A DNA stretch of 32,091 bases from contig MEDY01000346.1 of the NCBI GenBank assembly GCA_001724265.1, forward strand, positions 1 to 32,091. The letters run 5' to 3'. Both the position numbers and the translations under genes were made by a program. Numbering within the stretch: position 1 is the first letter of the stretch; the number at the start of each line of letters is the position of its first letter. The notes below the pieces were generated by a model. It saw nothing but the letters and a program-made list of their open reading frames with translations. It searched no databases and was not told the origin of the DNA. Origin of the DNA: Rhizaria sp. SCN 62-66 (Eukaryota). Shown here one piece after another: positions 6,201 through 32,091 of the stretch.

Positions 6201-6514
6201 CGCCGGGGTCCGTGTGGAGCCCGCGGTATGCGCCGTTGTCGTTGCCGCCGTAAGTGTCGTGTTCGGCGTAGTAGTTGGAGTGTTCATGGGCGGAGGCGGG
6301 GGCGGGGAGAGACACGCCGTACTTGGCCTCACGGTAGCGGCGAAGCTAAACAAAAACAATTTCAATAGGCACAAAATCAAACACGTGGTGTGGTAAGAGA
6401 GAGAAATTTGATTGATGGTCACGTTACGAGCAGACAGAGCATCATATCGGTGAAGGGGCAACGAAGACGTACCTGCTCACGGCCCTGGGCGATGAGAGCC
6501 TGTCGATCGCTCAT
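295..6514 (-). CDS. Large low-complexity coiled-coil protein (~2030 aa), possible golgin/GM130-like; 2 exons (6473-6514, 295-6345)
   Basis: The 2006-aa ORF is extended by a phase-0 intron at 6346-6472 (CAG|GTACGT...tttgtttAG|CTT) to an ATG at 6514. This gives MSDRQALIAQGREQ|LRRYREAKYGVSLP. The protein has several Ala/Glu/Arg heptad-like helical segments and ends ...KREIVHI, TAA. The function is inferred from motif resemblance only. Confidence 0.85.
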
Positions 6515-7212: not shown

Positions 7213-10200
7213 TTACACAATCGCTCCAGCAGCCGAGGCCTGCCTGTTCAGGCCGCTCCCCGCGCCGGCCATCCCCAACGGCGGCCGGCCCGCGCCCGCC
7301 GTCCCGCCAGCAACTGCCACAGGCGTGGCCGCTGCCGAGGACTGCGGCGTGGTAGCCATGGCCCTGAGTTCCCTGCTCATCGTCAGGATCACTGAGCCGC
7401 GCCGTCCCCCGGCCCCTGTGACGACGGGCCCGCCCAGGCCGGAAGACCCGGCTCCGGCGCCGTGGTGGCCCGCGACCGCCACACCGCCAGTCGCGTTGCT
7501 GCCCGCGACCGCGGTGACGGCCGCGAAGCCCGCCGCGGCCGCAGCGGCCGTGGCCGCCGCCGCCGCAGCCGCGGCCGCGGCAGAAGCCGTGGCGGAGGAA
7601 GCAGTGGCGGTGGCACCGGCGGCAGCAGAGGCGTCATCGACACTACGCGACGCAAACTGGTGCGGCACCGCCGACGACGACGGCACGCGCTGCAACACAA
7701 GCGAGCCGCGCTTGCTGACGACCGCGCCCTCTCCCCCGGCCGCAGCAGCGGTGCCGAGCCCCGGCGTGCCCGCGGGCAGCAACAGGCCCGGCGTGCCGGG
7801 GGTGCGCGTCTGCCTGCGCGCGCGCATGGCGAGCGCCTTGGGGATGGGGAAGCCCCACTCGTCGACCTCGTAGGCTGCCGCGGCGGGGCCCGTCAGCAGC
7901 GGCGGCGCGGTTGGCTGCGCCGTGCCGCGGGACGTCGGCCGCGACAGCGACGCCGAGGAGGAGGACGCCGCGCTGCTGGGCGCCAGAGTGCTCCCGGGTG
8001 CGAAGCCAAAGCCCGCGGCGATGCTCGAGGTCCCGTTGGCGCCGGCGGCGTGGCTGTGGCTCTGGAGGAGGCCGAGACTGCCGCTGGCGCGCACGCTGCC
8101 GCGGCTATTGCCGCGGCTGTTGCCTCGGCTCGCCGGCGCGGCTGCAGTAGTGGCGGCGCTGCTCGCATGGCTGCTGCTGCTGTTGCCAGGGTGAGCACCG
8201 GCGTGGGCGCTCGCGTGCGGGTGTGATTGCGGTGTGGAAGAGCTCTGGGGCAAGTGCCACATTGCGTGTGCCCTCGCAAGTCCGCTAACGCCAGCCCCAG
8301 CGGCCGGAGCAGCTGGCGCCGATGGGTGCGCGGCGGCGTGGGTCTGGTTCTCGCGCGGAGACCGCGGACGGTAGAGCTCGTTCCCACCGCGACTGTCGTC
8401 GGGGCGCGAGCGCGAGCGTGACCGTGAGTCGGACCCTGAGCCTGAGTCGGAGCGCGACTGCGAGCGCGACCGCGAGTGCGAGCGCTCGTGGTCGGTGTCC
8501 TGGCTGCTCCGCCGCCTCGCGCTGCGGCCGTGGCCGTGCCGGCCCCTGCGGTGGCCGTGGGCGGCGTTCGCGGCGACCGTCGCGCGCGCCGCACGCTCCC
8601 CCGCCGCCGTCGCCGCCGCCGTCGCCGCGGCGGCAGCGGAGGTCAGCGCCGCGACCATGGCCCGCAGCTCCGTCACCTCGTGCTCAAGCTTGACGATCGA
8701 GCCGCGGCGCGCCGCCGTCACCGCCGTCACCGCGCCGCCGCCGCCGCTCGGTGCGGCGTCGCCCGCAGTGGGCGACTGCGCGAAGGGGCCGTGCGCAGCG
8801 TGGCCGTGCGCGCCGGCTGCGGGCGTGCAGGCGGAGCCCGCGGGGGAGAGCGCGCCGTTAGCGGGGCTCTGCACTCCGCCGATCACGGGATACAAGTGGC
8901 GCGGACTCATGCTGCCGGCGCGCGCGAGCGAGTGGCCGTGCGCAGCGCTGGTGGCAGAGTGACCGTGAGCGACTGCAGCAGAGGCGGCCCATGCGGGGGA
9001 CCAGGACTCGTCGACGCCGCCTGTGGCCGCGGCCAGCACAGCGGCCGCCATCGGGTCTGCCGCGGCAGCGTCGCCCTCAGCGCCAGCGCCGGTCTGGGCG
9101 TGCGTGAGCGCGTTGTACTGGCGCTGCGCCATCAGCATCTGCTGCTGCTTCGAGGCCAGCGAGAGCGAGTTCGACAGCGCCTGCGCCTGTGCGCGCATGA
9201 TGAGCCCGCTCGCGCCGCCCGCCCCGACGCCGGCACCGGCGCCCGCGCTCGTGCCGGGCCTCATCGCGCCTGATGCAGCTGCATCGCCGCCGAGCTCGTG
9301 CGCGCCGTCCGCGGCGCCGGGGCCGCCGGCGTCCGCGAGCCCCAGCCCGGCGACGGGCAGCGGGCCCGCGGTCGCGGCCTCGGCCGTGGCCGCCGAGTGC
9401 AGCGGCAGCAGCAGCGCGAAGTCGCCCGTCGCGGCCAGACTGCCCAGCACGCTCGCGCCCGCTGTGTCACCCGTGACGGCGACTGCGGCGGCATTGAGCG
9501 CGAGCGCGGAGGAGGCCGCATCGACCGCGGGGCCGCGGGATGACAGCAGCTGCCCGTTGAGCTGTTGCTGCTGGAGCGGCTGGTGGGATTGATGCGGCAG
9601 CTGCAGTTGCTGCTGGGAAAGAGCGGGAAGCATCGCGGGTGGGACGGTACCGCCGTTGTGGCCGTGGCTGGCGGCGTTCATCGCGGCCGCCGTTGCAGCG
9701 GCGGAAGCAAGCGACGCGAAGTTGCTACTGCTGCTCGCCGCGGCCGCGAACGCCGCCAAGCCAGCCGCGCCGGGAATTCCTCCGTGTGCGCCGTGTGCGC
9801 CGTGTGTGCCATGCGCAGCACCAGCGCCAGCGCCAATGGCCGAGCCGGCGGAGGTAAGCGTGGAGCGCCGGCCGACGCCCGCGGCGACGCCCGGGACCGG
9901 CACGGCGGACGTGGAGGCAGAGGCGGCCGCGACGCCCGCGCGGAAGGCGGCCTCGGCCAGCGCGGCCAGCTGCGGCTGCAGCAGCGTCGCCGCCGCGGAC
10001 GCTACCGCCACAACGGCCGCCGGCGGGGGCAGCGCGCCCACATCCACGTCAGTGTTCATGTTGTTAGCGTTCACGCTGTTGTTGTTACCGTCGGTGATCA
10101 TGACATCGACGCCCCAGCGCTCCTCGGCGGCGCGCCGCAGCCGCTCGCGGTCGCCCACGGCGGCGGCGTCGCCCCACACGCGCTCCACGGCGGCCGCCAG

Positions 10201-12624
10201 CGCGGCGAGCCGGCGCTCGGCCTGGCGTGCGCGCGCGCGGGCGCCCGCGGCGTCGGCCGCCAGCGCGGAGATGCGCAGGTCCGTCGCGGCCGCAGTGGCG
10301 CGCGCTGCGGCGGCGGCCGCCGCGGTATGCTGCTGCAGCAACGCGGAGAGCGAGGAGGAGAGCGACGACGAGTGCAGAGAAAGCAGGGAAAGCAGGTGCG
10401 AGGTCCACGAGAGCGGGACCCCCGCCGTGGGCGTTGCTGCGGAGTATGGCTCCTGCGTCAGCTGTTGCTGCTCTTGACTCGCAGGCGGGGCAGCGGGGGA
10501 CGATGACGTTGTCGTCGTCGTCGTCGTCGTTGTCGTCGTCGTGGTAGTGGTCAGCAGAGGACTCAGCGGCTGCTGCTGCTGTTGCTGCTGGACTCTGTTG
10601 GGGTGAGTGAAATGGAGCACCGACTCGTTGCGGCCAATGCCCGCGAGGCCCGACGCAACGACGCTCTGTGCGTGCACCGGGGAGAACGGGACAACCGGTA
10701 AGGGCACCTCGCCACCAGCGCCCGCATTCACAGCTGCGGTCGCGCCGGGGGGCGCTGTCCCCGCCTCTGCTGCTGCCGTCGCCGACGTGACCGTTGAGAC
10801 GGCAGCTGCGACGGGCCAGCGAGGCGGCAACGGCACAGGCGCAGTGCTCGCATGGCTATCAAGGCCCTCATCATCCCCGAGGCCGTTGTTGCTCGCATTC
10901 AACACACCGTCGACGCTGTTAGCGCTGTTCCCGCTCGCGCTCGAACCGCTGCTATTGCTATTGCTGCTGCTGCTGCTGTTCGAGGTCGGGTGCTGGTGCT
11001 GGTGTTGGTCGTACGCGTGCGCAAGCGGGGTGCACGCCAGGCAGTGCGCGTGCGAGCAGTGGATGCACACCTCGGCAAAGCACGCGCCGTGCACGCGCAT
11101 CGCGGCGTCGCGCGCGGTCGTGCCGGCCGCCAGCCCGAGCGCGCCGCTGCCGCCTGAGGGCAGCGAAGGGAGCTCGGGGAGCGCAAGTGAGTTGTTCGCG
11201 CCGCGAGCGTTACTGTTCGCGTTGCTGGTGCGGTGTCCGGCGCGGCTGCCGCTGCGGCTGTTGCAGCGCGAGTTGTTGCGGCTCACGTTGCTCACCAGCA
11301 GCGAGTTGTTCACGTTGTCGCTGTCGCGCAACATGTAGTAGTCGTACGCGGCCGCCTCGCTTGCACTCAGAGGGCCGACAGCGTTGGGGCCAGCGCCAGC
11401 GCCAGCCTCGGCTGCAGGAGTGTTGCCGTTCACAGCCGATGTGGTCGCCGTTGTGACAGCTGCAGTCTGCGTCGCCGCGCGCGCAGCCTTGTACCAGCAC
11501 CAGCCGCAAAGCAGCGGCGCCTGCCACGCGCGCTCAACACGTCCGACGGCGGCCACGGCGGCCTCGGCCTTGCCCGCGGCCGCGGCGACCGCTGACTGGA
11601 GCTGCGCGACGTGGCCCGCCACCTTGCGGCCTTTGCCCAGCTCCTCCTTGACGGCCGCGACCTCGCGCCCCGAGGCGTCTGCGCGCCCGGCCAGCTCAGC
11701 GATGTGGCTCTCTGCGCGCGCAACGGCCGTCTCGAGCGTCTCGATACGGCTGCGCAGCTCTGCGCTCTCCCCGCGCGCCGCCGCCAGCGCGGCCAGTCGC
11801 TCGCCGCGCTCGGCAGTCGTGCGCGCCTCGGCCGCGGCCAGCGCGCGCTCCAGCGCCGCGCGGCGGTCCGTCTCGGTGCTCAGCGCGACGTGCAGCGAGC
11901 GCACCTCGCGGGACGCGGCCTGCGACTGCAGCTGCAGCGGCGTGATCGCAGACGAGAAAGAAGTCAAGCGAGACTGCAGGTCCTGGAGCAACGCGGACAT
12001 TAGGGGCGGGAACGAGGTCATGCCGCCGCCGCCCGCAGGAGACTGCAGGTCGGCCCCAGCGCCAGCGGCGGATGAGGGCGAGAAGCCGCTCGACGTGCGG
12101 GCGAGCGCAGGGAACCCTTGGGCGTTGTTTGCGCCCGCACTGTTCGCGTTATTCTTGCTGTTTTGTGCTGCTGAAGACCTCGACTCGGTCATGATGTCGC
12201 CCGGCAGACTTGGGTAGCCTGTGTAGGCCAGATCAGCCTCGTCGGGCGCCTCAGCGTCCGTATCGCCGCCGGCGACGGCGCCCGCGGCGAGCGCGGCGGC
12301 CGTCACCGGCGGGTTCTGGCCCTCGCCATCGACGCTGCTGGCGGTGGTGCCCGTCAGTGAAGACGCGGCGTCCGTCGACAGCAAACGGCTCAGTGCGCCA
12401 GGGGCACCAGCTGTAGAACCATGAACGGCGAGGCTCGCGGCGCGGGGCAGCGGGGCGCGGGGCGAGGCCCCGTCAGCGGCAGCGGAAGTCGAGTGAGAGA
12501 CTCTCGACGACAGCATCCCCGAAGTCCCCTGCACGGACGCAGGGGCGCGGGAGCGCGGGAGAGTCAGCGCAACATCGGGAAAAATGTCAGTTGGAAGGAA
12601 TAGCGAGTCGCGGTCACCAGACAT
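7213..12624 (-). CDS. Large low-complexity protein (~1803 aa) with coiled coil and split Cys/His cluster; function unknown
   Basis: Uninterrupted GC-rich ORF ending in TAA. The ATG at 12624 (MSGDRDS...) lies where GC-rich coding composition begins; the further upstream open frame is AT-rich. It contains a coiled coil (LQDLQSRL...VKEELGK), CGWC and HGACFAEVCIHCSHAHCLAC, and an RS-like tract. The start codon is uncertain. Confidence 0.8.
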   Translation of the reverse strand: MSGDRDSLFLPTDIFPDVALTLPRSRAPASVQGTSGMLSSRVSHSTSAAADGASPRAPLPRAASLAVHGSTAGAPGALSRLLSTDAASSLTGTTASSVDGEGQNPPVTAAALAAGAVAGGDTDAEAPDEADLAYTGYPSLPGDIMTESRSSAAQNSKNNANSAGANNAQGFPALARTSSGFSPSSAAGAGADLQSPAGGGGMTSFPPLMSALLQDLQSRLTSFSSAITPLQLQSQAASREVRSLHVALSTETDRRAALERALAAAEARTTAERGERLAALAAARGESAELRSRIETLETAVARAESHIAELAGRADASGREVAAVKEELGKGRKVAGHVAQLQSAVAAAAGKAEAAVAAVGRVERAWQAPLLCGWCWYKAARAATQTAAVTTATTSAVNGNTPAAEAGAGAGPNAVGPLSASEAAAYDYYMLRDSDNVNNSLLVSNVSRNNSRCNSRSGSRAGHRTSNANSNARGANNSLALPELPSLPSGGSGALGLAAGTTARDAAMRVHGACFAEVCIHCSHAHCLACTPLAHAYDQHQHQHPTSNSSSSSNSNSSGSSASGNSANSVDGVLNASNNGLGDDEGLDSHASTAPVPLPPRWPVAAAVSTVTSATAAAEAGTAPPGATAAVNAGAGGEVPLPVVPFSPVHAQSVVASGLAGIGRNESVLHFTHPNRVQQQQQQQPLSPLLTTTTTTTTTTTTTTTSSSPAAPPASQEQQQLTQEPYSAATPTAGVPLSWTSHLLSLLSLHSSSLSSSLSALLQQHTAAAAAAARATAAATDLRISALAADAAGARARARQAERRLAALAAAVERVWGDAAAVGDRERLRRAAEERWGVDVMITDGNNNSVNANNMNTDVDVGALPPPAAVVAVASAAATLLQPQLAALAEAAFRAGVAAASASTSAVPVPGVAAGVGRRSTLTSAGSAIGAGAGAAHGTHGAHGAHGGIPGAAGLAAFAAAASSSSNFASLASAAATAAAMNAASHGHNGGTVPPAMLPALSQQQLQLPHQSHQPLQQQQLNGQLLSSRGPAVDAASSALALNAAAVAVTGDTAGASVLGSLAATGDFALLLPLHSAATAEAATAGPLPVAGLGLADAGGPGAADGAHELGGDAAASGAMRPGTSAGAGAGVGAGGASGLIMRAQAQALSNSLSLASKQQQMLMAQRQYNALTHAQTGAGAEGDAAAADPMAAAVLAAATGGVDESWSPAWAASAAVAHGHSATSAAHGHSLARAGSMSPRHLYPVIGGVQSPANGALSPAGSACTPAAGAHGHAAHGPFAQSPTAGDAAPSGGGGAVTAVTAARRGSIVKLEHEVTELRAMVAALTSAAAAATAAATAAGERAARATVAANAAHGHRRGRHGHGRSARRRSSQDTDHERSHSRSRSQSRSDSGSGSDSRSRSRSRPDDSRGGNELYRPRSPRENQTHAAAHPSAPAAPAAGAGVSGLARAHAMWHLPQSSSTPQSHPHASAHAGAHPGNSSSSHASSAATTAAAPASRGNSRGNSRGSVRASGSLGLLQSHSHAAGANGTSSIAAGFGFAPGSTLAPSSAASSSSASLSRPTSRGTAQPTAPPLLTGPAAAAYEVDEWGFPIPKALAMRARRQTRTPGTPGLLLPAGTPGLGTAAAAGGEGAVVSKRGSLVLQRVPSSSAVPHQFASRSVDDASAAAGATATASSATASAAAAAAAAAATAAAAAAGFAAVTAVAGSNATGGVAVAGHHGAGAGSSGLGGPVVTGAGGRRGSVILTMSRELRAMATTPQSSAAATPVAVAGGTAGAGRPPLGMAGAGSGLNRQASAAGAIV

Positions 12625-12984
12625 GACGACGGCGGCGGCGGCGACGGCGGCGGCGACGACGAACAAGACTCTGAAGAACTGTGGAGGAGAGTGGGAACGA
12701 AAGTCGTGTACTATAGGAAACAACAATATTTTAAGAACGTAATAAAGAATGAGATAGTGATTCAAAGATATTTGTACTCGAAAATTACGGTTAAATCCAA
12801 TTTGACGCTCGAATGAAAGAGAGATAGTTTGATAAATTGCTGAGAAACCGACAGCATTCGCTGTCATCCACCTCGAGTCGCACCTCGCTCTTGCCATGAG
12901 CGTAACATACAAAATTGCACGTCGAAAAGCGAGGAGACAAAATCAACCCACGATAAAACTGAAGTATATGATAAAGAATGATGC

Positions 12985-12990
12985 TTTATT
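12985..12990 (-). promoter_or_regulatory. Candidate AATAAA polyadenylation signal of the SAM-domain gene
   Basis: AATAAA on the minus strand ~160 nt downstream of the TGA at 13148. Confidence 0.35.
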
Positions 12991-13147
12991 CGAACTAAGT
13001 ACTAAATTAACCCAATAACCATCGGGTATCCACACCAAACATGCCGCTGCCCAGACTGGCGCAGCAGTGGCCTTGAACCACATACATCAAGCACCGCAGT
13101 TGTCGCTGCGATACTTCTGCGTCGCATTCAGTATCAATACAGGACGC

Positions 13148-14175
13148 TCACTCCCTCAGCGGCAGCGCGGCCGGAGGAGCGTTGGCGACAGCCTCGCCCG
13201 CCGCGGCCGCCGCGGCAGCCTGGTCGGCGGACTTAACTGCCGTCGCGGTGGCCGCCGCGATCTCGGCCTCTTGCTCGGCCGCCTTGATCTTGCTGTACTC
13301 GGCGCGGATCAACGCGAGCTCGGCCTCGACAGTGGTGCCACGGGTGGCGGCGTTCGCGGTGGCGGCCTGCAGCATGGCCTTCTCCTCGGCCACCATCGAC
13401 TCGGCCTAAATTAGAGACAGAACACAAAACAACACATATAAACAGATGCGTGAGGGAATTACATTCCAATAATATGTTAAACAGCATGAAAATCTCGTGA
13501 TTGAACAATTTCAGCAGAAATAGATCAGTCAATGTCAACAAGATATTGAGTGTGCTGAAACGTTAGACGTACCGCGCCCTTCTTGAACTTGCCCTCGGCC
13601 CAGAGCTTCTGGCGCATCGCCTGGACCTCCTTGGCGTACGCCTTGGCGCTGTAGCGCTCGGCCTCGGACTGGCACGAGTTGGAGCGGACGACGGAGATGG
13701 CGGAGAGGAGCATGACGTACTGCTCAGGCCGCAGCCCGGCCAGCTCAAGGTCGGCCTGAGTGAGCGTGAAGAGCGCGGCGCCGTCGATGCGCTGCTTCGT
13801 GATGTACGCCACCGCCTGCGGGTCGACCTTGAGCGAGCGGAGGAAGACGACAACCTGCGGCGGGAGCCAGAGCTTGCTGGTGTGGATCACGGTGGTGTCG
13901 TACGACGTGCGGTGCTGCATGGGCGTCGCGCTGGTGTAGGTCGTGTCGGAGATCGCGATCGTTGCCAGGGGGGACGACATCGGCGGCGCAGGGATCATCG
14001 ACGGGTAGTGCAGCGCAACGGGGGATGCGCAGACAATGCAGGTGACGAGCGGGGTCGCCGTGGGGGTGACGGTGAGCACGGACTGGCAGTGCGGGCAGCG
14101 CACCAGGAAGTGCACGGGCAGCACCACGCCGTTCGGGTCGACATCGGCCGGGGAGGGGACAGCAGGGGCTGACAT
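13148..14175 (-). CDS. Zinc-ribbon (CPHC...CIVC) plus SAM-domain protein, ~286 aa; 2 exons (13573-14175, 13148-13405)
   Basis: A phase-0 intron at 13406-13572 (GCG|GTACGT...ctaatttAG|GCC) joins the 217-aa and 82-aa ORFs in frame. WLPPQVVVFLRSLKV...RIDGAALFTLTQADLELAGL...LLSAI matches the SAM pattern W..V..FL....IDG..L..LT..DL...G. The stop is TGA. Confidence 0.85.
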
Positions 14176-14808
14176 CACAGCAAAAAACGCGGCAGAAACT
14201 GGCGTGGGTAGATTCTCCGCGGGGTTGAGGGGCTTGAAAAGTCTGCGAAGTGAAACTAAGGCGACAAGAAGAAGGGAAGAAGTCGAACAAAAAGCGCAGA
14301 GTGAGTGAGTGTTGATGGGATGACTTGCTGTTCAAATTTAGCATAAAAAGAAAGAGGATGTGCGGTAGCTGTAAACCGATTTGTGGACAAAAATAAACAC
14401 ATGTATAGAAATCATTGAAGGCAGTGTATATGACGTTCAGGCGAACGCGTATTTCAGGTGTTTGTGAAGTGAAGAGTCGGGCGCGAAGCCGAGACTTTTT
14501 GCGAACCCATGTGGTGGTTGGAGGAACAGAGGCGTGAGGTCGCAGTTTCATCCTTAATATAACCGTGCACAATCGTTACTCAGGACTGAAAACGTGTGTC
14601 TGTTAATCTCCATAACGTGGCTTTACGTTTTTTTTAATAGATCTTTTCCTAGCCTTTCATACATCTTACACTCATGTCATTCAGTGAAGTGTCGTTTCAC
14701 CCTCCTCTCACCAGAATCAACCTCTGCTTTCCCTCGCCTCCACACTTGCCAAACAGACTGCTTCAACTCCCTATCTGTGACTGAAGCACACATTGTGTCT
14801 GTAATACA

Positions 14809-16692
14809 ATGTCCGACCGCCTTACAGGTGAGCGCGACGTTGCCCCGGCCCTCCAAGCCGTCCTCGCGCCTACGCCAACTTCAGATTCTCGCTCCGGCTC
14901 TGCTTCGGGCTCTGCTCCCGCCGGGATTCACGGTACATCCTGGCTCAACGGTGGCGCGTACTCTGCCCCGTCACGGTCATTTCCCGCGCCGATGACCCGC
15001 GACGGGCTGCCCGTTATTGTGACGCCGATCCGCTCCCTCAAGTTCGACGAAGAGGAAGAGAACGCCGCCGCTGCCAAGGATAACAGCGGCAACCCTGACA
15101 GCGCTGCGACTGCTGCTGGCAGCACAGCTTCTGCGCCGAAGCCGGTGCTGCCTACGCCAGTCCGCAATCCCGTCGTTGCCCCGGAGCCCGCTCCCGCCTC
15201 TGCCTCTGCTGCTCCCGCTTCCCGCGCCCCCTCCTCGGCCGCTCATGCTGCGGCGACGGCTCGCGCTCCTGCTGCTGCTCCTGCTGCAGCTGCAGTGCCC
15301 CGGTCTGGCCTTGCTGCGTCTACCGCCCCGCCCGTCACGCCCGCTGGCAACGGCGGCTACTCCCGTGGCAACGGCAACAGCAGCGGCAGCGGTCCCCGCG
15401 ACCCCCAAGCCGCGTTCGCTGACTTGATGGCGCAGGTGGCCCCGATCATCGGTCACCAGGGCACGGCGTACAACCCGTCTAAGGGCCCTCATACCCCCGC
15501 CAAGGGCGTTTACACGCCGTCCAAGGGCGCGTACCCCAGTGCTAACAGCCCCGAAGACGTGTTCAAGCGCTCATTCGGCCATGCGCCGCCGGTCACGTCG
15601 CCCGTCTGCGCGCGCGCACGCGCCAGCACCGGCCCCCATGGCAACCACACTAGCGCTGACCCGTTTGGCTGCAACACAAACAACAGCGGTGGTGACAGTG
15701 ATTTCGGCGACTATGATCGCAATGCGCCTGTCTACAGACACGCCTCATACCCTGTCACCACCCCTGCTGCGAATGCAACTGCGCACGCACCGAACGCAAA
15801 CGCAAATGATGCGCTTGCTCGCAGTCGCTCTCCCTTTGCCCCGCGCTCACAGCCACAATTGCAGTCGCAGCTCGCGCGCGCACAGTCCCCACGCAGGCCG
15901 CAGCCTCAGTCGCCGCCGCTGCGCCGCGCGCACCGCTGCGAGGCGTGCCAATACAAGGCCGCCCGCGAGGCCAAGCAGGCCGCCGCCGCGCGCGCCGCCG
16001 CGGCCAGGGACGCCGCCGACGCCGCCGCGGCCGCCGCACACGCGCAGCGCTACCCGTACCCTGGCCAAAGCGGCGGCGAAGACTACTGGAACCAGTCGCC
16101 GTATATGGCGTCTGCGCGCGAGGTTGCCGCGGCGAGCTTGCTGGGCGGACACGGCGGCAGCAGCGGCATTAACGCGCGCTACGCGGCTGCTGTGGCCGCT
16201 GCGAAGACCGCGGCCGCCGCTGCCGCCGCCGCCGCCGCGGAGGCCGAGGCCGCTGCGCGCGCAGTGTCCGAGGCCGAGGCCGAGGCCGCCTCGCGTGGCG
16301 GGGCCGGCAGCGGTGCGCTTTATGTGTGTCACTGTCCCGTGCTGGCGCAGTCGCCCAAGTTCGACGTCAGCGCGCGTGAAGCCGCCAAGCACGGCCGCGC
16401 GCTCGGCAGGACGCCCGCGCTGGCAACGGCCTCGCCCGTTGCAGCGTACGACCGGTACCCCGCGCTCACTGCGGCGCAGAGTCCTGCCCGCGGCCACTAC
16501 CCTGCGCTTATGGCTTCGCACGGCCCCTCCGCGGCAGCTGCCCCCGGGCAGTCCGGCGACGCGACGGTCGACGCTGGCGCTGCCGTGCTGCGCGCCGCGC
16601 TCGCGGAGATCCGCGCAGTCGGCGCGACGCTGGACGACGGCGACGGGGACCGAGACAGTGACAGCGAGAGTGAGGCCCGGTATCGCATGTAG
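14809..16692 (+). CDS. Pro/Ala/Ser-rich disordered protein, N-terminal part (627 aa to the first TAG); probably continuous with 16747-19605
   Basis: The ATG follows a pyrimidine-rich leader and the composition is GC-rich and coding-like. It has many SP/TP sites and CEAC and CHC motifs. It ends at a TAG that is in frame with the downstream ORF, with no intergenic-like sequence between them. Confidence 0.75.
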   Translation: MSDRLTGERDVAPALQAVLAPTPTSDSRSGSASGSAPAGIHGTSWLNGGAYSAPSRSFPAPMTRDGLPVIVTPIRSLKFDEEEENAAAAKDNSGNPDSAATAAGSTASAPKPVLPTPVRNPVVAPEPAPASASAAPASRAPSSAAHAAATARAPAAAPAAAAVPRSGLAASTAPPVTPAGNGGYSRGNGNSSGSGPRDPQAAFADLMAQVAPIIGHQGTAYNPSKGPHTPAKGVYTPSKGAYPSANSPEDVFKRSFGHAPPVTSPVCARARASTGPHGNHTSADPFGCNTNNSGGDSDFGDYDRNAPVYRHASYPVTTPAANATAHAPNANANDALARSRSPFAPRSQPQLQSQLARAQSPRRPQPQSPPLRRAHRCEACQYKAAREAKQAAAARAAAARDAADAAAAAAHAQRYPYPGQSGGEDYWNQSPYMASAREVAAASLLGGHGGSSGINARYAAAVAAAKTAAAAAAAAAAEAEAAARAVSEAEAEAASRGGAGSGALYVCHCPVLAQSPKFDVSAREAAKHGRALGRTPALATASPVAAYDRYPALTAAQSPARGHYPALMASHGPSAAAAPGQSGDATVDAGAAVLRAALAEIRAVGATLDDGDGDRDSDSESEARYRM

Positions 16693-16746
16693 CGACGTCA
16701 ACGGAAGCAATAGAAGCGCGCCGCTGCCGAGGCTGCTGCCAAACAG

Positions 16747-19605
16747 TTGCTGCAGCAGCAACAACAACAGCACCGGCCGAGTGTTAGTCATGCAAACAAG
16801 GCGCCAGTGCAGGTGGCTATGAGCGTTACTGGCCCTAACCATAATAACACCACCGCGAACACGAACAATGTTTCAGCTGTTGTTGACGATGACACCAGTG
16901 ACGACTTTGAGCAGAGTCAGTTCAACACGGACATCAGCATGGGCGGTGGCGCAGGTCTCGGTCTCAACGATATTGAAGCTAGTCCCGAAAAGGGCAGTAA
17001 GAACGGCGGCTACACTGGTAGTTACTTTACTCCCCCGTCTCCAATGTCGCTCATGACCACGCCTACAAATGCGAACACAAACACGAACATGCAGTACTAC
17101 CTTAAAAACATTGCTGAAGTAGTCGAAGACAACGCCCCGGGTAACTTTGTCACTCATGGCGATGACTCTGCTGTTCCTGCTGCTGTGCCCCAAACCAATC
17201 ATAGCGACCTTGCCGCGACCAGTATCACTGCGCCCGCCGTTGCTCCATCTTCATCTGCGACCACCAACACGATTGTCCCAAAAGATGATACTCATGACGA
17301 CGCTAATGCCATTTCTGCCAACGGTACGGCCGGTGTTTACGATGATGTCAATACAACCGTCACCGGCGACGATGGCTGCAGCGGGCTCCCAGCGCTGCCC
17401 CAGGCTTATGATCACGGCAGCATCAACGGGGCGAACACGAACACCGAAGCCGCTGCTGCTGCTGCTGCGGCTGCTGCTACTGTTCCTGCGGTTGCAACTG
17501 AACGTGATGATGATATTAACGAGGTTGACCCTTCGCCCGAGAATGCGCCCGTGTCAGTGGCCGCTAACGACGAACACACTCTCACTAACAGCGCTGACAG
17601 CGCTGACATTCATAATAACGCAAACCCTGAAGCTGACAGTCACTCAGTTCCTCAGAGCAGGCCCGGCAATATCTGCGAAGATCCTGCGGTGAGCGCTGCG
17701 ATCGCCAAGTTTGTGCCCGCGTTTGATTCTGATAGTGAGGATGACGACGGCAACAACAACCACATCAATAACGACGAAGACAATGACAAGTTTGAGACTG
17801 ACGCGTTAGCACACAAGTACAGCTACAACAACGACCTGAGTGTTGACGTTGATCCCAGTCACCTTCAGCCCCATGAGCCTGCGCCTGTTGCGTACACCGA
17901 CTCCGCGGGATCTGACTTCACTGCCAGCGGCTACGGCGACGCACTCAACGCCAGCGACCCGAGAGAGGCAGACCACCCCGGCCCGACGCCCAACACGCTG
18001 CGCCGCTGCACACGCCCCGTGTCACCGTCGTACTCGAACTCGCAGTCGTTCGCTTCGTCTTGTACGCAGCCGCAGCCCGCTGCCGTGCCGTTCCCCCAAG
18101 CTCATACCGCAGACCTCGCCCAGTATTACCGCAACGCCGGCGCTGCGCACAATCACCACGGCGCGCCTGCTTTGACGCAACAGTGGCAGCAACAGCCTCT
18201 TGCATCGCCCCGCTACTTACCTCCGACTCCCGCGTCAGCAAGCGCTGCCACTTCTAGCGCTCGCGCGTCCCAGCCTTACGGTGGCCGCTATGTCGCTAGC
18301 TCTGACGCCGGGGCGAGCGCTGGCGCCAGCGCTGGTGTGAGCGTTGGCAACGAGTCGTACCGCGCACCGCAGCCGTGGGCGGAGCTCCACGCTGCGGCGC
18401 TGCGGCGCGTGCAGCGCGTCGAGTCCGACGTGTTATCGACACTGGCGCAGACGGCGGGCGAGAACACCGCGCGCACGCTCGCCGCCCACGGCCGCCACGG
18501 CCACGCAGGCGCTGTCGGGTACGGTGGCTACGGCTACGACACGGCGGGGTACGCGTACGACGACCCGTATCTTGCCTCACTCAACGCGCTGTCGCAGCGC
18601 GGTCGCGGCCTGCTGCCGGCCTCCGCGTCCTGCTCGGCGGCCGGTCTGGCGCGCGGCTTCGCCAACGCCGCTGAGGCTAAGTCTGATGCGGATGGCCGCG
18701 ATGGTAGCCGCGGGGGGCTGACACCGCAAGCGCGCGCGTACGCCTGTCGCTACCACCACAATGACGACTACAATAGCGCCGGTGCGAGCAGTAACGTTCG
18801 TGGATACGCCGACGCGGAGGCATCACGCTACCGTCAAAGGTCCTCCGTCACTGCTCCCCCGGCCGCCCCCGCGCCGCTACCGTTGTCCACCTCCGCCGCG
18901 ACTGCCGCGGGCTATGCGACCAAAGGTGCACCGCTTGTGCTTGACAGTGATGCGCTGCAACAGCCGCTGCATTTGACGGACAAAGCTCTGCGCGCGGCGC
19001 GCAAGTCCGCGCGGCGCTACGAGGCCCAAGAGCAGCAACAGGATGCGCAGCAGCATCAGCATCAGCAGCAAGCTCAGCAACGCTCAACGCCATCTCAACG
19101 CTCGCGCTCGCAATCGCGGTCCCAGTCGCGCCCTCGCCCATCCTCGTCGCACCCCACTAGCGCGCGCGACAGCGCGCGCGCCGACCGCGAGCAGGAGCGC
19201 TGCGCCCGCCTTTCGCGGCCGACCGCGGCCAGCGACGCGCGCGCCAGTGCGCAGCAGTGCCACAACAGCAGTGTTTACCTGAACAACAACAATACGGTTG
19301 CTGCGGTGGTGGGACAGCGGTACAACGCCGGCGCGGGCGCAGGCGAGCCCAAGGGGCTGCGTGACACTGTGATCGCGCCGCTGCGTCCTGGCATTGGGTA
19401 TCCCGAGAGCGGGAGCGCGGGCGGCCGAGGGACCGTGAGCAGCAAGAAAGCGAGTGGTTCTAGCTGGAGTATGAGTGAAAGTGCAACTGTGTACGACCCT
19501 GTTAAGGGACAGGCTCCGGTTGAGAAGATCAGCAAGAGCGACAGTAGCGCGCACAGCTATAACAGCAACGCAACTAAAAAGAACAACACAGTCATGAATG
19601 TGTGA
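16747..19605 (+). CDS. Disordered Asn/Asp/Ala-rich protein, C-terminal part (952-aa ORF); probably the same gene as 14809-16692
   Basis: Same reading frame as the upstream ORF, with no promoter or UTR space before it. It ends TGA TAA followed by AT-rich 3' sequence and contains an ARLSRPTAAS motif near the C-terminus. Confidence 0.75.
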   Translation: MLQQQQQQHRPSVSHANKAPVQVAMSVTGPNHNNTTANTNNVSAVVDDDTSDDFEQSQFNTDISMGGGAGLGLNDIEASPEKGSKNGGYTGSYFTPPSPMSLMTTPTNANTNTNMQYYLKNIAEVVEDNAPGNFVTHGDDSAVPAAVPQTNHSDLAATSITAPAVAPSSSATTNTIVPKDDTHDDANAISANGTAGVYDDVNTTVTGDDGCSGLPALPQAYDHGSINGANTNTEAAAAAAAAAATVPAVATERDDDINEVDPSPENAPVSVAANDEHTLTNSADSADIHNNANPEADSHSVPQSRPGNICEDPAVSAAIAKFVPAFDSDSEDDDGNNNHINNDEDNDKFETDALAHKYSYNNDLSVDVDPSHLQPHEPAPVAYTDSAGSDFTASGYGDALNASDPREADHPGPTPNTLRRCTRPVSPSYSNSQSFASSCTQPQPAAVPFPQAHTADLAQYYRNAGAAHNHHGAPALTQQWQQQPLASPRYLPPTPASASAATSSARASQPYGGRYVASSDAGASAGASAGVSVGNESYRAPQPWAELHAAALRRVQRVESDVLSTLAQTAGENTARTLAAHGRHGHAGAVGYGGYGYDTAGYAYDDPYLASLNALSQRGRGLLPASASCSAAGLARGFANAAEAKSDADGRDGSRGGLTPQARAYACRYHHNDDYNSAGASSNVRGYADAEASRYRQRSSVTAPPAAPAPLPLSTSAATAAGYATKGAPLVLDSDALQQPLHLTDKALRAARKSARRYEAQEQQQDAQQHQHQQQAQQRSTPSQRSRSQSRSQSRPRPSSSHPTSARDSARADREQERCARLSRPTAASDARASAQQCHNSSVYLNNNNTVAAVVGQRYNAGAGAGEPKGLRDTVIAPLRPGIGYPESGSAGGRGTVSSKKASGSSWSMSESATVYDPVKGQAPVEKISKSDSSAHSYNSNATKKNNTVMNV

Positions 19606-19872
19606 TAAAAAGCAATTCTACAGTGCAACAAAAACATAAGATAATCCCGAAATTGGGTGTGAAATCATGATGGAAATACAAAACTTACAACTGTATTCGT
19701 GTTAAGTGAAACAAACTATTGAACTGCAAACAGACAACGCAAAGAACTGAAGTGAAAAGAAGCTAAAAACAACGAAAGTGTCAGAAAAATCACGTGCGCG
19801 AGTAACACATGCTTTCAGGCACAAGCAACGAAAAGCTAGAGTAACAACAACAACAAACAATAACTCAAGAAC

Positions 19873-20251
19873 TTATGCGCTGGGCGCAGTTGGCTCAACC
19901 CACGCCTGCGACTTGCCAGCAGCAGCACTGTTGTTCGAGTTATCATCGTCGTCAAGCGACATGTCCATGTCGAACCCGTCGCCACTCGCGCTGCTGCTCG
20001 CAGGAGCAGCAGCAGGGGCAGGAGCGGCAGGAGCCGCGCGTGCGGGCGCGGGGGCGCTCGGGCCGGCGCCGCTACTCGTCGCGCCGGTGTTGCTCGAGGT
20101 AGCGGAATTCGGGCGATGTTGCGCGTCAGTCGACTGCGACGGCGGCTGCTGCGATGGGGAGTCCGAGTTCACCACAGGCAGCGGTGGTGCCGTCTTGGAG
20201 AACTGCGCAGACTGTGACTGAGAGTTGGCAGCAGCACTGTTGCCGCTGGAG

Positions 20252-25754: not shown

Positions 25755-28147
25755 TTACATGTTGCTCTTGGCGGCCCTCGCAGCGTCTTCGCGCTCCTCG
25801 CGCTCGTCCTCCTCAAGGTCGCGCTGCAGCTGCCGCAGCTCGTTCTCATCCTCCGGCCCAATCTCGCCGTCGCCGTCGCCGTCTCCGTTGCGGTCCGCGG
25901 AGCCGCGTTGCGCGATGGCGTCCTCAAGCTCCTTCATCTTGGTCTGCTTCCAGTCGGCCAGCGCGCGCTCGCGCTCGCTGCGCTGCTGCTGCAGCGCGGA
26001 GGACCGCGCTAGAGACTTGTCCAGCAAAGATGCCGTCAATAAGTCAAGCCGCGACTTGCCAGCCCCCGCAGCCCCAGCGCTCACAGGAGCAGTCGCCGTC
26101 AGGTAGGGGTCGTCAGTGACGGCGTTGCTGTCGTTGTTGCTGCTCGTGTCACGGTAGAGGGTGCGCGCAGCAATCATTTGCAGCACTTCCTCCTCTAAGG
26201 GGTCGAAGCCCTTACCGACGAGCCCCTTAGATGCAGACGTGGAAATCGGGTTCCCTTCCTCGTCGTAGTCATCGTCATCGTCTTCATTCTCATCATCAAG
26301 ATCGTCAGCATTATCAATACCCCCATCGTCATCATCGTCGTCATCAGCGTCGTCATCGCCGTCGTCCGTCGCACTTCCGGCCGCCTCCGCCCTCGCGTCG
26401 GCCTCCGCCCGTTCGCGCGCGCTCACGGCCACCCCGTCGAGGCTCCGCAACCGCGGCATCGACCCCACCACCACGGCGCGGTACCCCAGCTGCGCGCGGT
26501 CGCTGGGCCCGTGGACACACGGGTTGCCGCTGAGCCAGAGGTGCTGCACTGAGTCGGGGATCTCGGCGCCCATCAGCGACTCGAAGGCGATGTTGTTATC
26601 CCGCAAATCGAGCACTTTGAGCCTGCGGAGCGCGCCGACCGCGGGCGGCACGGCGGTGAGCCCGTTGCTGGCGAGCGAGAGCAGGCGCAGTGTAGGCGCC
26701 AGATGTGCCAGCGCGGACTCCGGCAGGTCGCTGGGGACGCGGTTGTGCTGCAGGTACAAGTGCGTGGTGCGCGTGCACAGGTCGAGGGTACTTAGATCGT
26801 CTAAGTGGAGCCGGTCGAGGTACAGACGCGGGAAGGCCCACACGCGGTGCGACACGCGCGGCGGCAGCGAAGACGGGTCCCACGACGACAGCAGCGACGA
26901 TACAGCCACCGCGCTCCTACTCGAGCTCGAGCTCGAGCCAGAGCCAGAGCTGGAGCTAGAGCCAGAGCTCGAGTCTGAGCTGGTGCTTGAGCTCGTGTTC
27001 GCGGAACTGTGTGATGGGGCAAGGGCTGCGTCAAAGAGGGCGTCGGTGGTCGTCACGGGGTTCACGCTGCTGCTCATCACGTTGGTCGGACACAGCGGGG
27101 ACGCCAGGAACGCACGCAGCTCGTCGTCGTTCGCCTCAGCCTCCGCAGAAGTGTTGGAAGTGTTGGCTGTGGGACTCGGACCAGCGCTAGCGTTGCTCGC
27201 GGGCGGCAGGATGGCGGCCATCGCGTTCAGCACGCGGATCGCGACCATGGACGGCGTCAGCGCGCGCGCCCCGCCGCTGGAGAGACCGCCGTCGCCGGCG
27301 CCGTCGCCGTCGCCGCCGTCGCCGTAGACGTTGTCGAAGTCGCTCGCAGATGCATACTCACTGCTACCGACGTTCTTAGCGCCCGCACCAGTGACAGTGC
27401 TCGACACAACAGCCGCGGAGCTACTGCCGCGAGCACCAATGTTGCCACTATTGGTGTTTGTGTTGGATTTAGAGTGCGTGGTCGAGAAGGCAGCGCGCGC
27501 GGTGGCGGCGGCGGCGGAGGCCGACATGGCCGCTTCTGCGGCGGCGCGGCGGAACGCGGTGCCCGGCCGGGCCAATGCGGTGCCAGAGGCTGCAGTCACC
27601 GCAGAAACAGACTTGGTTTGCGCTGGCTCATGCTCGTGCTCTTCCTCATCGTCGTCGTCATCGTCATCACCGAAGTTTGGGACATTTTCTAATGAAAGAG
27701 AGCAGAAAGCAGGTGTAACAAAGATAGTGTCAGATGAAACTTGAATAGCACAAGTAAACACAAAAGCGCAGATATTGAACGTAAATTCATTTCAGCACGG
27801 ACAAATCTTGTGCCTCTAACCTGCAGTTATGGGATAAAGCGATGGTGGAGCGTTATGTTGCGCTCGAGTTCGCGCCAGAGCCAGAGCAACAGGTGGAGGC
27901 GGCAAGAGCGTGCTGCGAGCCTGTGGTGGAGTTGTCGTCCAACGCTATCACAAGAAGCAGGAACTTAGACTCAGCGAGCTTAGGCTCAGCGAGACCGCAG
28001 GAGAGGAAACAGCATAGGCTTTCACGTACCGTCGTCCTCGTCGAGGTCAAGTGTGTTTAACTTGTCTTCTACATCAGCCAGACGTGCGAGAAGGTCGTCG
28101 AGCTCTTGCGGAGAGGTGGCAGACGCAGGGGCAGGAGCGCGGCTCAT
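25755..28147 (-). CDS. LRRC46: Leucine-rich-repeat protein with LRRcap, LRRC46-like (~683 aa); 2 exons (28030-28147, 25755-27688)
   Basis: The ATG at 28147 (ccaccATG, MSRAPAPASATSPQELDDLLARL...) joins via a phase-1 intron at 27689-28029 (G|GTACGT...tctttcattAG|AA). The core LYLDRL...THLYLQHN...LRLLSLASN...LKVLDLRDNNI...EIPDSVQHLWLSGNPC...GYRAVVVGSMPRLRSLDG and the following acidic tract parallel the LRRC46 LRR+cap layout. This comparison is from memory; orthology has not been computed. Confidence 0.75.
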
Positions 28148-28941: not shown

Positions 28942-29234
28942 TTACTTAGCACGAGCACGCATCTTGCGCCGCTGTAGAGGAGAAAAGAGAGATGAGAAGA
29001 AGACAAGTAGAAGAAAAAGAGAGATGAGAAGATACTCTTGATAGTTAGAAGAGAGTAGGGAAAGAAGAAGGCACAGACAAAAGGCAGAAATGCGCGATTG
29101 CCGTGCGGAGCTTTGGAATCCAGGGAAGCGAGTGCTTCCGAGATATAAAGGGTGGAAAAGAGAGCAAAAGAGGAGGGTCAACATACCTTACGCTTAAGGC
29201 GGCGCATGCGCTTCTTAGCCCACTTGGCACGCAT
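28942..29234 (-). CDS. RPL41: Ribosomal protein eL41 (eS32), 25 aa; 2 exons (29187-29234, 28942-28971)
   Basis: The spliced translation MRAKWAKKRMRRLKRK|RRKMRARAK* is nearly identical to the canonical eL41. The intron at 28972-29186 is AAG|GTATGT...TTCTAAC...pyrimidine tract...tacAG. Confidence 0.97.
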
Positions 29235-29589: not shown

Positions 29590-31292
29590 ACTATGCCTTG
29601 TAATATCTATATTTTTGCATACAAACAGTTTATATTGTTATGAATTTTAGAGGTCACTGTGATTCGCGTAGTTTCCTTTTAAGACATACACAATGTGTGT
29701 TGTATTCTGCTTGATTCGTCAGGGGTCAAATATTGCCACGATTCAGTAGTAGCAATCAGTCCCTCGAACAGCCAGCTGCGTCGGAGTCACAATTTCTTTC
29801 CCCTCAGCTCGACGGAATTTGATTTCGTGTATCTCACGTTGATACACATCATTTTAAGTTCATCAAAATATATATTGAATCGGACTGACACATTTATTTG
29901 TTTTATATTAATATCGATGTGAACAGAACATTCGTTGAGGAATTCTTTATGAAGCTATCTTGCAGTGAGTTCAACACTTTGAGAACTAACGATGACAAGG
30001 GAGAAAACGCACTAGAAGATCGTATCAAAAGATATCACTATAATATAGGATTTAACAAACGTTTTTAGCTCTAACACATCTGTTTCACATGCTACAGCAA
30101 CTGTTGTCATGACGAAGCAGCACCTTCACAATACGATACAACGAGTGTCACGACGAAGCGCTGCAGAACCTAAAGGAGAGCGCACAATGACTTGCGGGCA
30201 CAGGGTGCTGTTCAGGTCCTGCACATAGTCATCTCAGCATTGCTAAAAGTCTTCTAGAATTCCTTGGGACAGCAATTCCCCACACTGCAATGGTAAGTAC
30301 TGAGGGCTCGGTGCATCGCAGCTGAGCTTGCAGTAACAGCATCTTGACGGCCAAAACCTACTTGTAGCGAGCACACACTGCCCTATCATTATTCATACAA
30401 TACGCATGTGCGCGGGAAAAAGTAGTGATGGTGCACCTGAGCGCGGTATGACTTGATGGCGGCGAGGTTAAGTGGCTATAGCAGAGAAGCCCGACAGTTG
30501 GCAGGAGCGAACGAAAAAGGCGTCACGCCGTTGCCAGGACACGGCTTGCGTGGGATAGCCAGTAACACAGTCACAAATAAACATTATGAAGCTCTTCGCG
30601 GATTGCGTCACGAGCGTTGTATCGTGCAGGAGCTTAGCGTCCACCTCGAGGATTCGGCCGTCGATAGCGCTGCCGTGAACTTAAACGAGCACATGAAGTA
30701 ACGCACAACAAATAGGTTCTTCGTTGTCAAACATAGAAAATACATATTGGGCTTCATGTACACAACGTCCCTAACTGCACATACGTCGCGCTTCGCTTGC
30801 AGAGGTTAAGCAGTCCCGCATCGAAGGCATGAAGCACGGGATTGACGTTGCCGTCGTCACAGAGTCAACGATCTTTGTGGTCAGCAGATTTAAGGACACA
30901 TTGTTGTTAGCGCAAAAAAAACCTTTCACGGAAAAGAAACCTCAGCACCACCTCGCTTAGAGCAAGTCATTGATGCGACTAGGGACGTCGATAGTGGAGC
31001 AAAACAGAGTGAGGATATTTGAACAGAGCAAAGAGTGAGACAGAATCAGGGGTTAGACGCACATTTCACAAAAGTTAATTTACAGAGCAAATTTACTAGA
31101 CAATGAAATAGCGTGACACAAAGAATCTCAGCAATTGACGATATAATTCGAAAGATATTGTGTCTCAAAGATGACCGCAAAGATACGATCGCCGAAGCGC
31201 TGCGGCGAGTGTAGGGTTGACGGGGTTCGCAAAAAAGTAGCCCTTACCCCCCGCCGAAAAAGCTTTCGCATCACGGTCGACCGAGGACATGT

Positions 31293-31329: not shown

Positions 31330-32091
31330 ATGGTTGTTAAGACGGAGGTACGTTATATCACCTACTATTCTTTCCATACGCATAATTGCAGACGTTAATG
31401 ACACTGTAGTCTTTGTACTGGCACTCTTTGTTGCCGCGCTCGTAGAGCCCTCGACTCATTGTTTGCCCGACTTCTCGTATCCCTTCTTTGCGCTTCCCTT
31501 CGTCTCCCCTATAGACGTGCTTCTTCTCGGAGCTCAGGATTTACCCCGGCCAGGGCCGCCGCATCGTTCGCCGCGATGGTAAGGTATGTCTTCCCCCTAC
31601 TCTGTCCCCAGTTTGTCACTCTGTCATCTTGCACTGAAGAGCCACACTCCTTCGCTCTCCTGCCGCTCCCTCACAAGCTTGACACAGTTCGCTGACGAGC
31701 TCGCCAGCTTGCCGCGCGAATATAACGCCTTGTTCACTAGCTCATAACGACAACCGCTCACCGTGCACTCGCTTATTCCTCTTCCTCCGTTTGCTTTCTC
31801 GCCCTCTCCGTCCGCTTCGCACACTGCTCGTCTTACTGTTTACAGCTCATGATCTTCATTGATCACCGCTGCATTGCGCACCACGTGAACCGCAAGAAGG
31901 CCCAGCGCCTCCGCTGGACCCGCTCGTGGCGCCGTGCCCACAAGAAGGTGAAGGCTGACAAGCTCACCACCAAGAAGCTTGTCAAGAAGGCTACCAAGAC
32001 CTTCCGCTCCTTCTCCGGCATCTCCGTTGAGGAGATCCACGCCCGCTCCTCCGCCAACTCCGACTACAAGAAGGCCCAGCGTGAGGCTGCC
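31330..32091 (+). CDS. RPL24: 60S ribosomal protein eL24, 3' truncated by the window end; exons 31330-31347, 31515-31583, 31846->32091
   Basis: The spliced translation MVVKTE|TCFFSELRIYPGQGRRIVRRDGK|LMIFIDHRCIAHHVNRKKAQRLRWTRSWRRAHKK... matches the eL24 motif C.FS...IYPG.G....R.DGK...W....R..HKK. The introns are 31348-31514 (GTACGT..TAG) and 31584-31845 (GTATGT..CAG), and codon usage is strongly biased. Confidence 0.96.

Follow-up and report, generated by a model that had tools for sequence, protein, structure and literature searches.

A pair of in-frame TAG codons in a long orphan gene of Rhizaria sp. SCN 62-66, tentatively read as premature stops

Stop codons inside an otherwise protein-like frame have been described in several systems. 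Reassignment of UAG alone is known from Iotanema spirale, which reads it as Gln, and from the rhizarian exLh, which reads it as Leu and in which 384 UAG codons were found in 71 genes (PMC5304391). Double readthrough candidates have been discussed for insects (PMC5100048, PMC3840789). Reports on fungi describe adenosine-to-inosine (A-to-I) editing that repairs the two tandem UAGs of Fusarium PUK1 (PMC4817773), restorative editing of premature UAG in 71 pseudogenes of filamentous ascomycetes (PMC10776026), and a preference of fungal A-to-I editing for U at position -1 and for hairpin loops (PMC11156358). Premature-stop alleles and young pseudogenes of lineage-specific disordered proteins form a further group. 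Here, we describe a gene of Rhizaria sp. SCN 62-66 in which a long coding frame on the + strand is interrupted by two TAG codons, TAG1 and TAG2. The gene lies on contig MEDY01000346.1 (assembly GCA_001724265.1), of which the whole analyzed stretch of 32,091 nt is referred to below as the window. In the reading that we favor, and to which we give about an even chance of being right, the TAGs are genuine premature stops, and the gene that they interrupt is a fast-evolving orphan encoding a disordered protein.

TAG1 (16690-16692) and TAG2 (16711-16713) both stand in the frame of two open reading frames (ORFs), 14785..16692 and 16714..19605, and are spaced by 21 nt, i.e. 7 codons apart, the pair falling within 8 codons. 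Counted in frame from the ATG at 14809, there are no stops in the 627 codons before the pair and none in the 963 codons after it (clean ORFs 14809-16689 and 16714-19602; 1,598 codons for the whole frame), while the remaining five frames of 14809-19602 contain 18, 86, 19, 54, and 56 stops. A codon-usage score, for which four other long genes of the window served as the training set, was calculated in 240-nt windows, in each of which, from 14761 to 19681, the frame of the gene was the best one. The score was positive from 14881 to 19441, with the exceptions of -2.4 at 15721 and 0.0 at 16561, and around the junction it dipped to 0.0 and 10.7. The initial annotation had pointed to the shared frame and quoted the junction; its sequence turned out to be exact, the TAGs stand where it placed them, and the frame is the best-coding one on both sides. 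We conclude that the two ORFs either still form a single coding unit or did so until a short time ago. The read-through protein is almost wholly of low complexity.

The assembled contigs of four public runs (X3, X4, X5, and X6) were compared with 14300-19900, bearing in mind that contigs hide minority alleles and minority editing. The runs containing the stretch derive from bioreactor, wastewater, and activated-sludge metagenomes; X5 has no coverage of the junction, and parts of the gene without X6 coverage were given no weight. The DNA run X3, which comes from a study other than the likely source, is represented by a contig that matches 16257-17050 without a single difference or gap, and since this independent run has the stretch unchanged, the assembly error that was initially considered can be set aside. 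The polyA metatranscriptome X6 has a 478-nt contig (16555-17032) with three differences, at 16609, 16611, and 16962, none of them at the TAGs. Its depth is nil over the flanks 14300-15047 and 19536-19900, where X4, a run of the same study, has depths of 4.7-6.2 and 5.0-5.2, respectively, and X6 is therefore taken to represent RNA rather than carried-over DNA. Because the X6 contig crosses both TAGs unchanged, RNA editing or splicing as a constitutive process, also contemplated earlier, is contradicted. In X4, record 13 spans TAG2, with all its differences accounted for elsewhere, and record 12 spans TAG1, with four differences, of which three are listed and one is unseen near a contig end. The X4 contigs break at 16697 and resume at 16699, which suggests an unresolved population variant at the position skipped, 16698, where the CGT codon between the TAGs has its third base. 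A loose end at 16589 in X4 and X6 was set aside; it has no AG before it and probably reflects a brief GC-rich stretch matching some other organism. The TAGs are genuine in the DNA and in the RNA-library contig, and in that contig they are unspliced and unedited.

In eight coding stretches of the window, TAG makes up 2 of 7,819 codons, both of them in this gene, beside 337 Gln codons (283 CAG and 54 CAA). Approximately 60 TAGs would be expected if TAG:CAG followed TTG:CTG (52:242), and the chance of two independent sites lying this close is 0.009-0.011. TAG is far too rare and too clustered to be taken for a sense codon, and two TAGs within 8 codons are more readily explained by a local event than by the scatter that ordinary codon usage would produce. 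These counts, set beside the frequency of UAG in exLh, do not bear out the earlier suggestion that UAG is an ordinary sense codon here; the nonsense mutations that the initial annotation named as its own caveat are ranked first instead. What the DNA does carry are genuine stops within a frame that is uninterrupted elsewhere.

If this is so, the organism would read TAG as a stop, and the gene would formerly have been a single ORF of about 1,600 codons for a disordered, fast-evolving orphan protein. It would have acquired two premature TAGs at a spacing of 21 nt, probably through a single local mutational event or through two in rapid succession. The whole stretch would still be present in the mRNA, and translation from the ATG at 14809 would halt at TAG1, giving a 627-residue product, while the 963-codon downstream frame would be either a young relic before decay or a frame with its own expression from the ATG at 16819. 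Termination at the TAGs, a recent date for the change, and the fate of the downstream frame are all inferred.

The truncation could be tolerable because the gene looks weakly constrained, as judged from the change counts between strains and the lack of a Pfam family or homologue. The strain of X4 and X6 differs from the window by 16 substitutions in 5,601 nt (about 0.3% of sites). Within the gene, 3 of the codon changes are synonymous and 9 non-synonymous, a count over few sites: the upstream part has six substitutions in five codons, 0 silent and 5 replacement, and the downstream part 3 silent and 4 replacement changes. With so few changes, neutral evolution and weak constraint cannot be told apart. 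One more non-synonymous change is seen in a strain variant, P0003, which equals the 928-residue downstream product, P0002, at 927 of 928 residues. Two deletions were noted, one of 3 nt at 17122 that drops one unit of a short tandem repeat, and one of 8 nt at 19775, just beyond the gene stop. With a divergence this small, a relic ORF should still be intact, provided that the stops arose at most shortly before the strains separated.

Searches for homologues of the read-through protein (5.8 billion clusters; 1.84 billion representatives), made in a word-indexed collection and, for the representatives, exhaustively, returned only its own downstream product, which is called as a protein on four contigs of the public collection. 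A contig of 115.7 kb is among those that contain the gene. No homologue of the upstream part was found, and the exact upstream product is absent from the collection, as is any junction-spanning protein of 883-2,811 residues. The read-through protein contains no Pfam family, and the window contains no paralogue of the gene. An exact junction pattern in which both TAGs and position 16698 were replaced by N matched 0 stretches of the JGI metagenome collection. When the same collection was scanned with a pattern of gene C, the upstream neighbor, one locus (L001) was obtained among 155 candidate stretches; it is a 4,951-nt contig that is 100% identical to 10212-15162 of the window and ends before the junction. 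The organism is therefore present in at least one further data set.

Like other premature-stop alleles and young pseudogenes of lineage-specific disordered proteins, the gene has stops in an otherwise intact frame, no homologues, and more replacement than silent changes between strains. Unlike ordinary ones, its stops are just 7 codons apart with none elsewhere, they are common to diverged strains, and the long downstream frame is clean. Several observations weigh against premature stops: (i) none of the seven gene ends in the window uses TAG, although the sample is small; (ii) both TAGs are common to strains about 0.3% apart that were sampled roughly ten years apart; (iii) the downstream frame looks maintained, with 963 codons free of stops versus 15 to 70 stops in other frames, and its sole indel, the 3-nt one, is in frame; (iv) one RNA-library contig, that of X6, extends 135 nt upstream of TAG1 and 319 nt downstream of TAG2; (v) nonsense mutations arising independently would fall within 8 codons of each other only about 1% of the time, so that a single-event origin has to be assumed; and (vi) TAG1 is without the typical 3' flanking composition. 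As to the last point, the GC content of the next 120 nt is 0.59 after TAG1 and 0.60 after TAG2, compared with 0.31-0.38 after five of the seven true stops, a contrast that is not absolute, given the values of 0.55 for gene C (whose row is placed a base or two off) and 0.53 for RPL41.

The first of these points is also the starting point of the alternative that UAG is decoded genome-wide, being either reassigned or so leaky that near-cognate tRNAs read it, with the full 1,598-residue protein being made. We consider this unlikely, though the least so among the alternatives, and unlikely to the same degree that UAG, absent from gene ends, is starting to reappear in weakly constrained genes as an early UAG-only code change. 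Our recount of the gene ends gave five TAA, two TGA, and no TAG, exactly as first reported, and this absence argues for decoding only weakly at n = 7. TAA ends five of the seven genes despite the GC-rich coding sequence (stop sites at 295-297, 7213-7215, 19603-19608, 19873-19875, 25755-25757, and 28942-28944). Decoding is further favored by the fact that both interruptions are TAG, by their presence in an RNA-library contig and in both strains, by the intact downstream frame with its in-frame indel, and by the precedents of Iotanema and exLh (PMC5304391). As in the UAG-only codes of these two organisms (PMC5304391) and of phyllopharyngean ciliates (PMC11687900), only UAG interrupts here, and UAA and UGA end genes. 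However, such organisms have several UAGs per gene, conserved positions included, and the 384 UAGs in 71 genes of exLh contrast with two in 7,819 codons here, where about 60 would be expected. Both of these are clustered, and none is in a conserved gene, since RPL41, the RPL24 exons, and the leucine-rich repeat (LRR) protein contain no in-frame TAG. ARAGORN found no tRNA in the window, hence no CUA tRNA there, and an Rfam scan of the window returned no family. A search of the literature brought up no relevant case of a wastewater eukaryote with a deviant genetic code.

Slightly less probable in our estimation is that there are two separate tandem genes, of which the first ends at TAG1 and the second starts from the ATG at 16819 with its own promoter, TAG2 being incidental in the spacer. 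The calling of the 928-residue product from this ATG on four contigs agrees with such an arrangement, the sharing of a frame would be a 1-in-3 chance, and one extra stop in a 42-codon spacer is, by estimate, about what composition predicts. Yet the spacer would be only 126 nt long with a GC content of about 0.6, whereas elsewhere in the window neighboring genes on the same strand are separated by about 870 and 1,200 nt of AT-richer DNA. The spacer is spanned by one RNA-library contig, no other gene end uses TAG, and the frame of the gene (frame 1) is the best throughout. The per-codon scores are to be read against a coding mean of 1.11 (5th percentile, 0.43) and a non-coding mean of -1.47 (95th percentile, -0.54). 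From TAG1 to the ATG at 16819, frame 1 scores 0.07 per codon, between the non-coding 95th and the in-frame coding 5th percentile, which is similar to the 0.16 per codon of the first 42 codons from that ATG. In 16714-16818, frame 1 outscores the other two forward frames (12.8 versus -8.2 and -23.1), and its 0.37 per codon again falls between the same two percentiles. With a score of -1.61 per codon, the six codons that separate the TAGs are non-coding-like, and no second copy of this stretch was found in the window.

Programmed double readthrough specific to this gene, in which most ribosomes would stop at TAG1 and few would pass both TAGs to make a long isoform, is in our view improbable. The C after TAG1 and the CAA before TAG2 both make for relatively leaky contexts and, together with the long and clean downstream frame, are in keeping with readthrough. 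Against it, two stops would multiply two small efficiencies, and usual readthrough extensions are far shorter than the 963 codons seen here. The predicted fold of 16680-16830 is no more stable than that of shuffled sequences (z = -0.07), with no sign in it of anything that would promote readthrough, and no sequence from a related species was found by which conservation could be judged, as the searches return the gene itself alone. The insect candidates (PMC5100048, PMC3840789) lend the idea a precedent and resemble this gene in having a protein-like frame past in-frame stops; they differ in that here no stimulating structure was found, the extension is much longer, and the case is known from the gene's own sequence alone.

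A little less credible again is that the contigs show just the disrupted allele where the organism is diploid or the population mixed, with an intact allele carrying sense codons hidden behind the major form. Minority variants are dropped from contigs, the X4 break between the TAGs may mark a variant at 16698, and record 12 of X4 has one difference more than the three listed, all of which would suit a hidden allele. The X3 and X6 contigs, however, run unbroken through both TAGs, and the collection holds no junction-spanning protein in the size range given above.

Conditional restorative A-to-I editing, by which UAG would become UIG and be read as Trp at a particular stage, as in filamentous ascomycetes, seems very improbable. 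It would account for the fact that UAG alone, never UAA or UGA, interrupts the frame, and each TAG does lie in a predicted small hairpin loop; these hairpins, however, are no stabler than those of shuffled sequences (z = -0.68 and +1.13). The polyA RNA-library contig has A at both sites (16691 and 16712), although minority or stage-specific editing would be invisible in contigs. A filamentous ascomycete host is unlikely because the RPL24 exon is distant from every solved ribosome, the fungal ones included (best E-value, 8.6e-9; yeast-type chains, about 3e-4); its best matches are presumably mammalian entries. The tandem UAGs of PUK1 (PMC4817773) and the related ascomycete cases (PMC10776026) offer a parallel that is no more than a lead, the likeness consisting in a nearby pair of premature UAGs in an otherwise intact, transcribed gene. 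The present case departs from them in that one RNA-library contig has no G at the two A positions, the organism is not ascomycete-like, and the hairpins are not significant.

Equally improbable is an unrecognized intron or alternative splice that removes both TAGs, e.g. from GTATCG at 16680 to TTAG at 16787: frame-preserving GT-AG pairs over the TAGs are available from 93 nt up (283 within the range scanned, among them 16680-16787, of 108 nt), and an in-frame TAG elsewhere in the window, at 6346-6348, which bounds the long ORF of gene A, is the 3' end of a real intron, but there is no GTAYGT on the + strand of 14785-19605, the last 30 nt of the candidates listed have a pyrimidine share of 0.33-0.56 versus 0.70-0.96 in four real introns, and the X6 contig is colinear with the DNA and supports no joint at the TAGs, those listed being low-complexity joins with sides of 20-31 nt. 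The real introns of the window (in RPL41, RPL24, gene C, and gene A) are 126-262 nt long, start with GTAYGT, are pyrimidine-rich, and end in YAG. The initial annotation was thus right that no intron resembling them removes the TAGs and that the short GT-AG options of 25-37 nt cause frameshifts, whereas it overlooked the frame-preserving pairs from 93 nt. Gene A (- strand, 6346-6514) has a short first exon with its ATG at 6514 and a 126-nt intron running from GTACGT to TTTAG (6472-6347).

Table 1. Coordinates of the parts of the TAG-interrupted gene within the window.
Feature	Position	Strand	Description
Upstream part of gene	14809..16689	+	627 codons, Ala/Pro/Ser-rich, low complexity; stop-free, best coding frame
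TAG1	16690..16692	+	Context ATG TAG CGA; C after the stop; same in X3 DNA and X6 RNA-library contigs
Inter-TAG codons	16693..16710	+	Six codons, CGA CGT CAA CGG AAG CAA, all poorly used in this genome
TAG2	16711..16713	+	Context CAA TAG AAG; same in X3, X4 (record 13), and X6 contigs
Stretch from TAG2 to first in-frame ATG	16714..16818	+	35 in-frame codons; coding sequence or spacer
Downstream ORF, protein P0002	16819..19602	+	928 codons from ATG 16819; stop-free; Asn/Thr/Asp-rich, then Ala/Ser/Gln-rich
True gene end	19603..19608	+	TGA directly followed by TAA; AT-rich DNA beyond, GC 0.31 in the next 120 nt

The window is eukaryotic, with GC-rich coding sequence and AT-richer spacers. Gene C (- strand, 13148-14175) consists of two exons around an intron at 13572-13406 and stops with TGA; its transcription diverges from that of the TAG-interrupted gene, with about 630 nt between them, and a Pfam search of two stop-to-stop frames covering it returned no family. 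Towards the other end of the window, RPL41 (28942-29233, - strand, one intron) lies near RPL24 (31331-32091, + strand, two introns, cut by the window end). The approximately 1.5 kb between these two genes (29640-31200) has no strong codon-usage signal and no Rfam match, and contains a small + strand ORF (30441-30701) that ends with TAA.

The case illustrates that, where a genome is GC-rich, stops flanked on both sides by long clean frames can look like a change of the genetic code. If the TAGs are ordinary premature stops, the locus is a nonsense-interrupted orphan gene with no wider consequence. If, on the other hand, UAG is decoded, this organism would represent a further eukaryotic lineage in which UAG is split from UAA, and it would be at a stage where the codon is almost unused, which would bear on the onset of code change and on the question of codon disappearance versus an ambiguous intermediate.

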